Assembly (NCBI GenBank): GCA_020854835.1
Contig: JAHKLX010000007.1
Coordinates: 36,044 to 100,043 of the forward strand
Length of the DNA stretch: 64,000 nt
Source: Candidatus Micrarchaeota archaeon
Lineage (GTDB): Archaea; Micrarchaeota; Micrarchaeia; Anstonellales; JAGGVH01
Direction: 5' to 3'
This document shows, piece by piece, positions 28,784 to 57,602 of the stretch. Each line of letters starts with the position of its first letter. The first letter of the stretch is position 1. The translations under genes and the position numbers were made by a program. The notes under the pieces are model-generated. The model made no database searches, was not told the DNA's origin, and saw only the letters and a list, made by a program, of their open reading frames with translations.

Positions 28784-28905
28784 AGCCTCAGAGGGGAATT
28801 GAGCCCCCGACCTCATCCTTTTCATGACCTTTTCTTTTGGTGAAGCTTTTCTTCTTAAGAAAAGGTTCTACCAAGGATGCGCTCTACCGACTGAGCTACT
28901 GAGGC
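28784..28905 (-). tRNA. tRNA-Thr(GGU) with 49-nt intron at 37/38 (28820-28868)
   Basis: GCCTCAG acceptor, CATCC TT GGT A|intron|A GGATG; intron hairpin ACCTTTTCTT/AAGAAAAGGT; 73-nt mature length. Confidence 0.92.
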
Positions 28906-53230: not shown

Positions 53231-53347
53231 TGTTAGCAGCAGTACGTCTTCCCGCCTAAGAAGGCAGTACAAACAATACCGTGCACGAGCTTAACTTCCG
53301 TGTTCGAGAAGGGAACGGGTGTTTCCTCGCGCCTATGGCCGCTAACA
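53231..53347 (-). rRNA. rrf: 5S rRNA (unlinked from 16S/23S)
   Basis: Reverse complement TGTTAGCGGCCATAG...CACCCGTTCCCTTCTCGAACACGGAAGTTAAG...GCTGCTAACA, 117 nt with paired ends. Confidence 0.95.
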
Positions 53348-53402
53348 AAGAATATTAAAGATTAGAAATGTTTAAAAACATATCTTTACCAAACAAATTA
53401 AG

Positions 53403-53507
53403 TTGAATATAGGGCTTCCGCATGGAAGTGTGGTTTTATAGTTCTCATGACCACACAGCTGGAAACAGCAGCAAAGAGGACGCTTATTGCAAAGATCCTA
53501 TATACAA
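53403..53507 (+). ncRNA. Candidate structured non-coding RNA of unknown class
   Basis: Closing stem 53403-53414/53496-53507; hairpins CTTCC/GGAAG, GTGTGGT/ACCACAC, GCTG-GAAA-CAGC; GC-richer than flanks. Confidence 0.55.
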
Positions 53508-53520
53508 TATATTAATCTGC

Positions 53521-53667
53521 GCCGGGGTGGCGGAATCTGGTAACGCGCACGCCTGGAAATTTTTGTGTTGAACACAAATTAAAAACAGGCAGCGTGTGCT
53601 CGAAAGGGCTTAAGGGTTCAAAACATTTTCTTTTAAATGGGAAAATGGGAGTATCCCTTCCCCGGCG
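53521..53667 (+). tRNA. tRNA-Ser(GGA) with two introns (37/38: 53559-53590; T-loop 59/60: 53623-53653)
   Basis: GCCGGGG/CCCCGGC acceptor, CACGC CT GGA A|..|A GCGTG, long variable arm; removing both introns gives an 84-nt tRNA with TTCAAAT loop. Confidence 0.92.
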
Positions 53668-53691
53668 TTTAAATACTGAGGTGAAAATAAT

Positions 53692-54309
53692 ATGGCAAAA
53701 GCTAAAAAAGGTGGAAAGCAAGCAGCAAGCAAAAAGAAAAAAGGTACAAGCAAACCTAAAAAGAAAACTGAGAAAAAAGAAAAAAAAGATAGACAACCTA
53801 AAGTTAAAGAAATAAGAAAAATTACAACTGAAGAAGCCAAAGGTATTATTCGTGTATGTGGGAAAGAAGTTAATGGTGTACATCCGATATGCAGAGCGTT
53901 AACAGATATTGAAGGTATCGGAGAACAATATGCAAGTGCAATATCATATGCAATTGAAAAGGAAATGGGTGTTGATCCATGGACAAAACCTTTGGGAGAA
54001 TTGGACGAAGCAGATATTGAAAGAGTTGAAGAAATTGTTAATAATCCCTTAAAATATAATGTTCCCGAATGGATGATTAATAGAAGACGCGATGTTGAAA
54101 CAAACCAAAACAAACATCTTGTTGGAAATGAATTGAGATACAGTATTAGAAGTGATATTGAAAGAGAAAGATCCTCAAGAAGCTGGGTTGGTTTCAGACA
54201 TTCCTATGGAAAAAGGAAAGTTAGGGGGCAAAAAACCAGATCTAGAGGTAGACGCGGAGGCGTAGTCGGTGTCGTAAAAAAGAAAGGCGATAAAGGCGGA
54301 AAGAAATAG
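53692..54309 (+). CDS. rps13: 30S ribosomal protein S13
   Basis: ALTDIEGIG, PEWMINRRRD, RKVRGQKTRS. Confidence 0.96.
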   Translation: MAKAKKGGKQAASKKKKGTSKPKKKTEKKEKKDRQPKVKEIRKITTEEAKGIIRVCGKEVNGVHPICRALTDIEGIGEQYASAISYAIEKEMGVDPWTKPLGELDEADIERVEEIVNNPLKYNVPEWMINRRRDVETNQNKHLVGNELRYSIRSDIERERSSRSWVGFRHSYGKRKVRGQKTRSRGRRGGVVGVVKKKGDKGGKK

Positions 54310-57506: not shown

Positions 57507-57602
57507 GGGGCCGTAGTGTAACCTGGTCATCATGCCAGCTTGGGGATGTTTTTTAAAAACAACAAAATGCTGGTGATTTGGGTTCAAATCCCAGCGGCCC
57601 CA
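57507..57602 (+). tRNA. tRNA-Pro(GGG) with 22-nt intron at 37/38 (57546-57567)
   Basis: GGGGCCG/CGGCCCC acceptor, CCAGC TT GGG G|intron|T GCTGG, GGTTCAAATCC. Confidence 0.93.

Follow-up and report, generated by a model that had tools for sequence, protein, structure and literature searches.

Ribosomal protein leaders are typically narrow and lineage-specific in their distribution. The leader of the bacterial alpha operon (rpsM-rpsK-rpsD-rpoA-rplQ) is an S4-binding pseudoknot that overlaps the ribosome-binding site of rpsM. Another group of RNAs, which includes RtT RNA of tyrT and the 3'ETS of leuZ, consists of spacer RNAs from bacterial tRNA operons that are freed by tRNA-processing nucleases. 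A further architecture is that of the lysine and FMN riboswitch aptamers, where a closing P1 stem and hairpins surround a junction and a tertiary contact is made from loop to loop. To our knowledge, archaea have yielded very few structured RNAs of regulatory or leader type.

The element described here lies in a 64,000-nucleotide stretch of a Micrarchaeota contig (the window), between a 5S rRNA gene and a ribosomal protein operon. From sequence comparison, it appears to be a real, new and well defined structured RNA with five members, either tRNA-linked or an operon leader, for which a putative role is proposed below. Those portions of the literature that were available contained no description of such an RNA in small-genome archaeal lineages. 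Like the alpha operon leader, the element is located at the head of a homologous S13/S11/S4 cluster, is about 100 nt in length, contains a pseudoknot and is lineage-specific. Unlike that leader, it is separated from the cluster by a tRNA gene, has an archaeal host and shows no sequence likeness, and the binding of a ribosomal protein is hypothetical here. If the mechanism proposed below is correct, the element would resemble RtT and the 3'ETS as an RNA born in a tRNA precursor with the tRNA as the maturation signal. Those RNAs are internal or 3' spacers made of simple hairpins or repeats, whereas the element precedes the tRNA as a 5' leader, combines a five-way junction with kissing loops, heads a ribosomal protein operon and has no match to the RtT model of Rfam. 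With the lysine and FMN aptamers it shares a P1 stem, hairpins round a junction and a loop-loop contact; however, its junction is unconserved, it lacks a terminator or start-sequestering platform and it has no Rfam match.

Genomic setting of the element

The genome of the window (G000) is AT-rich and is represented by 2.04 Mb in 145 contigs with an estimated completeness of 87% and a contamination of 5.6%. The genomes of its relatives measure 0.5–1.5 Mb; at about twice their size, and with this contamination, the assembly may be a mixed bin. The 16S, 23S and 5S rRNA genes of G000 are found on three different contigs and are therefore apparently unlinked.

The 5S rRNA gene (53231-53346) is on the minus strand and diverges from the element. 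Between it and rps13, the order on the plus strand begins with a TATA-like octamer, TTTAAAAA, at 53371-53378, the putative TATA box of the element's promoter, which ends 24 nt before G53402. The element follows at 53402-53508, delimited by folding and by its homologues as a five-way junction composed of P1 and H1–H4. A spacer (53509-53520) leads to G1 of a tRNA-Ser(GGA) gene with two introns (53521-53667), and rps13 (53692-54309) is the first gene of the rps13-rps4-rps11 operon. A Shine-Dalgarno sequence, GAGGUGA, is located 7 nt upstream of the rps13 ATG and about 10 nt past the end of the tRNA. A reading of the window made from the letters alone (the sequence-only reading) had described a GC-richer block about 25 nt after a TATA-like box at the head of the tRNA-Ser/rps13 operon. 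Both points agree with the data: the GC content of 53400-53499 is 0.44, compared to 0.26-0.39 for the coding flanks and 0.29 for 53350-53449, and the element heads this operon in all five genomes that carry it.

The tRNA-Ser(GGA) gene is genuine. As it stands, it is called neither by ARAGORN nor by Rfam at the gathering score because it contains two introns. Once about 29-33 nt of the T-loop had been removed in silico, ARAGORN called tRNA-Ser(GGA) in 37 of 480 variants and placed an intron of 32 nt in its anticodon loop. The anticodon-loop intron is positioned at about 53559-53590 and the T-loop intron at about 53623-53653, the boundaries of the latter being uncertain by a few nt. ARAGORN also identified tRNA-Ser(GGA) directly 5' of rps13 in 5 of the 30 loci of relatives that were examined.

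Two more Rfam tRNA matches are present in the window, one of 122 nt at 28784-28905 on the minus strand (53.9 bits) and one of 96 nt at 57507-57602 on the plus strand (51.3 bits), and both are probably intron-bearing. ARAGORN missed the first; to the second, which sits within a cluster of ribosomal protein and RNA polymerase subunit genes, it assigned an anticodon of 4 bases, an impossible length. In the S13 protein, a lysine-rich stretch of about 45 residues (53692-53830) extends the N-terminus ahead of the conserved domain, and the S13 proteins of relatives align only from about query residue 20-48.

Predicted fold

The plus strand of 53395-53515 folds with a minimum free energy of -36.7 kcal/mol (z = -5.01), and none of 200 dinucleotide shuffles was as good. 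For the minus strand of the same region, z was -2.45 and 2 of 200 shuffles were as good. The closing stem, predicted earlier as 12 positions with one mismatch, is recovered as P1, in which 53402-53413 and 53497-53508 form 11 pairs and one A.A mismatch. Where three to four internal hairpins had been expected, there are four. H1 (53414-53429) pairs GCUUCC with GGAAGU around a GCAU loop, and H2 (53430-53454) pairs GUGGUU with GACCAC around a 13-nt pyrimidine-rich loop (53436-53448). H3 (53458-53469) pairs GCUG with CAGC and is capped by the GAAA tetraloop that the sequence-only reading had pointed out; this tetraloop belongs to the window and is replaced by UUAU, GUUUC, AUGG and GUGA in the homologues. 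H4 (53471-53490) pairs GCAA with UUGC around a 12-nt purine-rich loop (53475-53486).

When folded within a longer transcript that included the tRNA, the element retained its fold at 0.90-1.00 of positions, and no alternative pairing with the downstream sequence was found. From these calculations, the element is predicted to fold autonomously. Complementarity between the element and the tRNA was no better than that of shuffles, which counts against the leader being a processing or folding helper that protects the 5' end of the two-intron pre-tRNA-Ser or aids its folding, splicing or cleavage by RNase P. The element is always directly 5' of tRNA-Ser(GGA), and this tRNA carries two introns, as such a helper would lead one to expect; however, relatives without the element also have T-loop and anticodon-loop introns (by eye). 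A leader made only to be discarded would also hardly keep five helices and a pseudoknot by means of the compensatory changes described below. A helper role is considered unlikely.

Homologues and conservation of pairing

A BLASTN search with the element against 41 relatives produced, besides the element itself, only matches of 15-29 nt with E values of at least 0.018. The seven matches that were inspected were unrelated GC-richer sequence without the hairpins. Since BLASTN found nothing genuine, rps13 loci were gathered for a synteny comparison. S13 was detected in 39 of the 41 genomes and the upstream regions of 30 loci were read. Collecting syntenic regions, as the sequence-only reading had advised, revealed the same layout of TATA box, element and tRNA-Ser in four more genomes. 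One of these (G002) is from the same genus as G000, and its element is likewise beside a divergent 5S gene (L023). G003 belongs to family f2, and G011 and G019 both belong to family f10. The five carriers represent three families of one order.

A covariance model made from the element sequence of the window alone (R1) identified the G002 copy with 51.7 bits (E 2.6e-11). With filters off, R1 also identified the G019 copy with 22.4 bits (E 0.002) as the third-best match in 99,431 bases, the next match having 13.3 bits. The G003 and G011 copies were not among the 16 matches of R1 at E ≤ 10 over the 30 loci, and on small loci their scores were 8.5 and 6.9 bits, respectively. Because these scores are low, the homology of the G003 and G011 copies rests on synteny, architecture and a later model that contains them. 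A second model (R2), made from the four other genomes with the sequence of the window's element left out, matched the window element with 86.5 bits (E 3.7e-14), and this was its sole match in G000. The copy number is one per genome.

MAFFT misaligned H3 and the 3' part of the five sequences (A1), and covariance-model alignments were used instead. In the five-sequence alignment A9, which was fitted to the nested structure by a covariance model so that pairing is inflated, standard pairs occupy 94.6% of the 130 cells, and both sides have changed in 20 of 28 pairs. None of 500 column shuffles reached any of five measures, a control that ignores relatedness among five rows that include two pairs of close kin and are therefore effectively three lineages. 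Sliding the partners by 1-3 columns left 31-44% paired. Both-side changes are found in 6 of the 8 modelled pairs of P1. H2 and H3 are paired in 100% of cells, with both-side changes in 5 of 6 and 3 of 4 pairs, respectively. H4 is the weakest helix with 88% of cells paired. The plus strand is favoured since several columns of A9 contain G-U pairs. The junction strands and loops differ in sequence between the lineages while the shape is kept, and the homologues' own folds gave z values of -4.27 (G002), -4.22 (G003), -5.52 (G011) and -5.82 (G019).

The comparative evidence that the element is a real, conserved, structured RNA is strong. Of the readings inferred earlier, a stable RNA and an operon leader are both still candidates; the reduced SRP RNA that had been offered beside them is not, for reasons given below.

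A predicted pseudoknot between the H2 and H4 loops

In the window, GUUCUC of the H2 loop (53441-53446) is complementary to GAGGAC of the H4 loop (53476-53481). All five genomes show this complementarity between the H2 loop and the 5' part of the H4 loop, and each does so with different letters. The duplex energy was compared with that of loop shuffles in 2000 trials per genome. As good an energy was reached by 18 shuffles for G000, 34 for G002 (AUUCUC with GAGAAU), 98 for G019 (UUUCC with GGAAA), 186 for G003 (UCCUC with GAGGA) and 421 for G011 (UUUUCC with GGAAAA), the last two not being individually significant. From these counts, the pseudoknot is convincing in the family of the window and suggestive in the others. 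The pseudoknot helix played no part in the fitting of A9; there, 79.3% of its cells are paired with both-side changes in 3 of 6 pairs, and the pairing persists despite register slips in f10. The sequence-only reading had placed a pseudoknot elsewhere, between AAGTGT and ACGCTT. That pairing overlaps the H1 and H2 stems and, by eye, is complementary just in G000 and its congener. It is not a conserved feature of the element.

In the minimum free energy fold of G011 (L055), a single long helix of about 17 pairs takes the place of H2, H4 and the pseudoknot; in this helix, the 5' strand and loop of H2 are paired with the loop and 3' strand of H4. A similar but interrupted helix could form in G019, though not in G000. 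Judging from the folding calculations, the G011 helix may be a lineage-specific second conformation.

Comparison with known RNA families

The region 53340-53700 was searched with cmscan against Rfam 15, a check that the sequence-only reading had recommended, and gave no match at E ≤ 10 to any family, among them RF01857, RF00373, RF00005, RtT and the riboswitches. The five homologues produced one chance-level match to a human lncRNA region (E 1.4).

The archaeal SRP model RF01857 matched at G000:C10:10414-10681 on the minus strand (81.8 bits, E 8.6e-19, positions 1-317), a full-length match that is below the gathering score of 96.5 bits. A normal SRP RNA had been named as something to look for elsewhere in the genome. 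With this match on another contig, and with no RF01857 match for the element at E ≤ 10, an SRP RNA identity was rejected and the proposal of a strongly reduced SRP RNA is refuted. The supposed likeness to SRP helix 8, a GNRA loop followed by AGCA, is not conserved. The element does resemble the archaeal SRP Alu domain in being compact, with paired ends and loop-loop pairing between two hairpins; it differs in having four hairpins rather than two, no helix 8 motifs and no RF01857 match. An RNase P RNA (RF00373) identity was rejected in the same manner, as the element has no match and RNase P RNA was found elsewhere in all five carriers above the Rfam cut-off (90-157 bits).

The ACA trinucleotide noted earlier is present at 53455-53457, where the four homologues have ACU, GUUG, GCA and GCA. 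Since it is unconserved and is placed between H2 and H3 instead of at the 3' end, an H/ACA guide was rejected and the proposed H/ACA-like tail is unsupported. An inspection by eye of every helix in the five sequences found no K-turn or K-loop (conserved G.A/A.G) and no internal pocket. A tRNA identity was rejected in the absence of an RF00005 match at E ≤ 10, an ARAGORN call and D- or T-loop motifs. The closing stem and four arms are reminiscent of a class II tRNA with its long variable arm; however, the linkers of the element are mirrored, with 0 nt after P1 and 6-8 nt before the P1 3' strand, and it is arms 2 and 4 that kiss, without D- or T-loop motifs.

That the element belongs to a known family in reduced or divergent form, be it SRP RNA, RNase P RNA, an H/ACA guide or a tRNA-like gene, is thus very improbable. 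The likeness is loose, consisting of paired ends, kissing loops as in the SRP Alu domain and five arms as in a class II tRNA, and it is set against the lack of an Rfam match, the presence of SRP and RNase P RNAs elsewhere and the unconserved ACA.

Several other identities were considered and rejected. A riboswitch or metabolite sensor is at odds with the unconserved junction nucleotides, the lack of a terminator or start-site platform and the lack of alternative pairing. No conserved core or Rfam match is present for a self-cleaving ribozyme. By inspection, P1 has a 1x1 mismatch and none of the 3-nt bulges of a BHB-flanked circular RNA, and there are no boxes of a C/D box RNA. A 49-aa ORF at 53422-53571 extends into the tRNA, and the G003 element lacks an ATG. 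Mimicry of a Shine-Dalgarno or anti-Shine-Dalgarno sequence holds for the f1 and f2 sequences only. Comparison of the elements with their own 16S and 23S rRNAs, both sense and antisense, gave chance-level matches of about 10 nt or less at inconsistent sites, with the exception of A/T-only low-complexity matches in G011. This argues against rRNA mimicry or a guide function at the sequence level.

Promoter and transcription

In all five carriers, an A/T-only TATA-like octamer begins 31-35 nt ahead of the P1 5' strand. With this spacing, the foot of P1 is very probably where transcription starts. In the window, the TATA region is also near the divergent 5S gene, whose 5' end is 25 nt away. Since it is at promoter distance from both, 53346-53402 is suggested to be a two-way promoter region that serves the 5S gene on the minus strand and the element on the plus strand.

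A TATA-like octamer at promoter distance from tRNA G1 was found in one of the five carriers, G019, where it is 33 nt before the tRNA; there is none before the tRNA-Ser of the window. The tRNA is predicted to be without a promoter of its own in at least G000, G002 and G003. The spacer from element to tRNA is 12-16 nt in G000, 8 nt in G002, 16 nt in G003 and 19 nt in G019, and no terminator-like T run follows the element in four of the five carriers. The G011 spacer is longer at 54 nt and includes a T6 run and a hairpin. Given this spacer and the TATA-like octamer before the tRNA in G019, co-transcription of element and tRNA is possibly not universal. The rps13 start is 171-210 nt past tRNA G1 in G000, G002, G003 and G019, and the start in G011 is probably mis-assigned. 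From the position of the rps13 Shine-Dalgarno sequence so close to the end of the tRNA, the mRNA probably derives from the same transcript.

The transcript organization bears on whether the element could be a cis-acting feedback leader, to which a ribosomal protein encoded downstream would bind once in excess over rRNA and so lower the output of the transcript. By analogy with the bacterial alpha operon, S4 would be the obvious candidate, with an effect on elongation, processing or stability. The probable inclusion of rps13 in the transcript is consistent with this model, as are the location of the element ahead of rps13-rps4-rps11 in five of five carriers, the pseudoknot and the narrow lineage-specific distribution. 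The intervening tRNA is the main difficulty: it is complete, intron-bearing and 147 nt long, it stands between the element and the start of rps13, and cuts at its ends would sever the leader from the mRNA. For this reason a classical translational leader is argued against. The element is without a terminator-like T run after it in four of five carriers and showed no alternative downstream pairing; its sequence does not resemble the organism's own 16S or 23S rRNA, and its junction nucleotides are unconserved. A feedback leader is the main rival of the favoured reading given below, and is less probable than it.

Proposed role

The role proposed here takes as its starting point the established features of the element: its fold, the conservation of that fold with compensatory changes, its strand, its promoter spacing, its synteny and the autonomy of its folding. 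The favoured reading, held with about even confidence, is that the element is an undescribed, lineage-restricted structured RNA of about 100-115 nt, which forms the 5' leader of a pre-tRNA-Ser/rps13 transcript, is released by RNase P and acts through a protein. Its co-transcription, release, stability and protein-binding role are putative.

In such a mechanism, a canonical archaeal TATA promoter would fire at, or a few nt from, the base of P1. The transcript would fold by itself into a five-way junction in which H1 is set directly against H2, and H3 against H4. The pyrimidine-rich loop of H2 would kiss the purine-rich H4 loop. Transcription would continue through tRNA-Ser(GGA) into the rps13 operon. 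RNase P, whose RNA is present in all five carriers, would then cut at tRNA G1 and set the element free as an RNA of about 120 nt with paired ends, which may work via a bound protein. Selection appears to have kept the shape and not the sequence. This would be expected of an RNA that binds proteins or serves as a scaffold and is linked to the supply of translation components, more than of a ribozyme or a metabolite sensor.

A more speculative proposal, and a doubtful one, is that the element is an independently evolved archaeal counterpart of the S4/alpha operon leader, in which S4, S13 or S11 would bind the kissing-loop junction and control a precursor that contains both tRNA and mRNA, through its processing or elongation and not through translation initiation. 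If so, the output of tRNA-Ser would be coupled to that of ribosomal proteins and, in the family of the window, the shared divergent promoter would couple 5S rRNA as well.

With a genome of about 1–2 Mb, these archaea keep a five-helix pseudoknotted RNA before an essential tRNA and a core ribosomal protein operon across family-level divergence. Should the favoured reading of a released RNA be correct, the element would represent a new family of non-coding RNA and an archaeal case of a tRNA that serves as the maturation signal of its neighbour. Should it be a feedback leader, it would represent autoregulation by a ribosomal protein that acts on a tRNA-mRNA co-transcript. In either case, the element is a defined and compact target for probing, pull-downs and structural work, and the covariance model is ready for metagenome mining.

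Distribution and the 5' side of tRNA-Ser(GGA)

R2 was searched against samples of the order, the class and the phylum, which overlap and in which, above 40 genomes, stricter filters lose some weak matches. In the order sample, the element was present in 5 of 151 genomes: two of f1, including G000, one of f2 and two of f10. Families f2 and f10 comprise just one and two genomes, all of them carriers; the element was found in none of the 42 genomes of f6, the 74 of f8 and the 19 of f9. In the class sample, 5 of 151 genomes were matched without a new carrier, the fifth (G154, E 0.216) being a false match that reads as coding sequence with no S13 nearby. In the phylum sample, 4 of 151 genomes were matched, all of them known carriers. 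Weak R2 matches in G001, G004, G005 and G006 (E 0.86-5) were rejected as they are coding-like with no tRNA-Ser motif downstream. In G001, a congener that is 88% complete, neither the element nor S13 was detected and the locus is therefore probably unassembled. A metagenome scan with S13 found one locus, at 41% identity, without the element. By eye, in most other families the upstream gene's coding sequence stops no more than a few tens of nt short of the tRNA.

A quick S13+S4+S11 tree of 30 loci grouped the five carriers with G006, a member of f5 without the element (SH-aLRT 94). On this tree the carrier label requires two changes. The element may have a single origin.

Tandem hairpin repeat units were found upstream of tRNA-Ser(GGA) in three loci that lack the element, L034 (G020), L051 (G006) and L044 (G016). 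In L034, every repeat unit begins with a copy of the tRNA 5' end. In the G011 spacer (L027:907-960), the hairpin lies beside a partial copy of the tRNA 5' end. From these sequences, the 5' side of tRNA-Ser(GGA) seems to be an insertion hot spot.

This abundance of hairpin units and duplicated tRNA 5' ends, in the three loci and in the G011 spacer, is what would be expected if the element were itself a neutral or selfish insertion by the tRNA gene, either a relic of an integrated element or a hairpin mini-element. However, the element is found as a single copy per genome and keeps its position across three families that share only about 40-60% identity in their S13+S4+S11 proteins. It also shows compensatory change in 20 of 28 pairs, with the promoter spacing kept in five of five carriers. 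An insertion of this kind is quite improbable; the compensatory changes and the single copy make both it and the processing helper less likely.

The f10 genomes that carry the element also have rRNA genes with large insertions, probably introns. The G011 16S gene (L075) is 3766 nt long compared to a model of 1478 positions, and the G019 23S gene (L080) is 4978 nt long compared to 2987.
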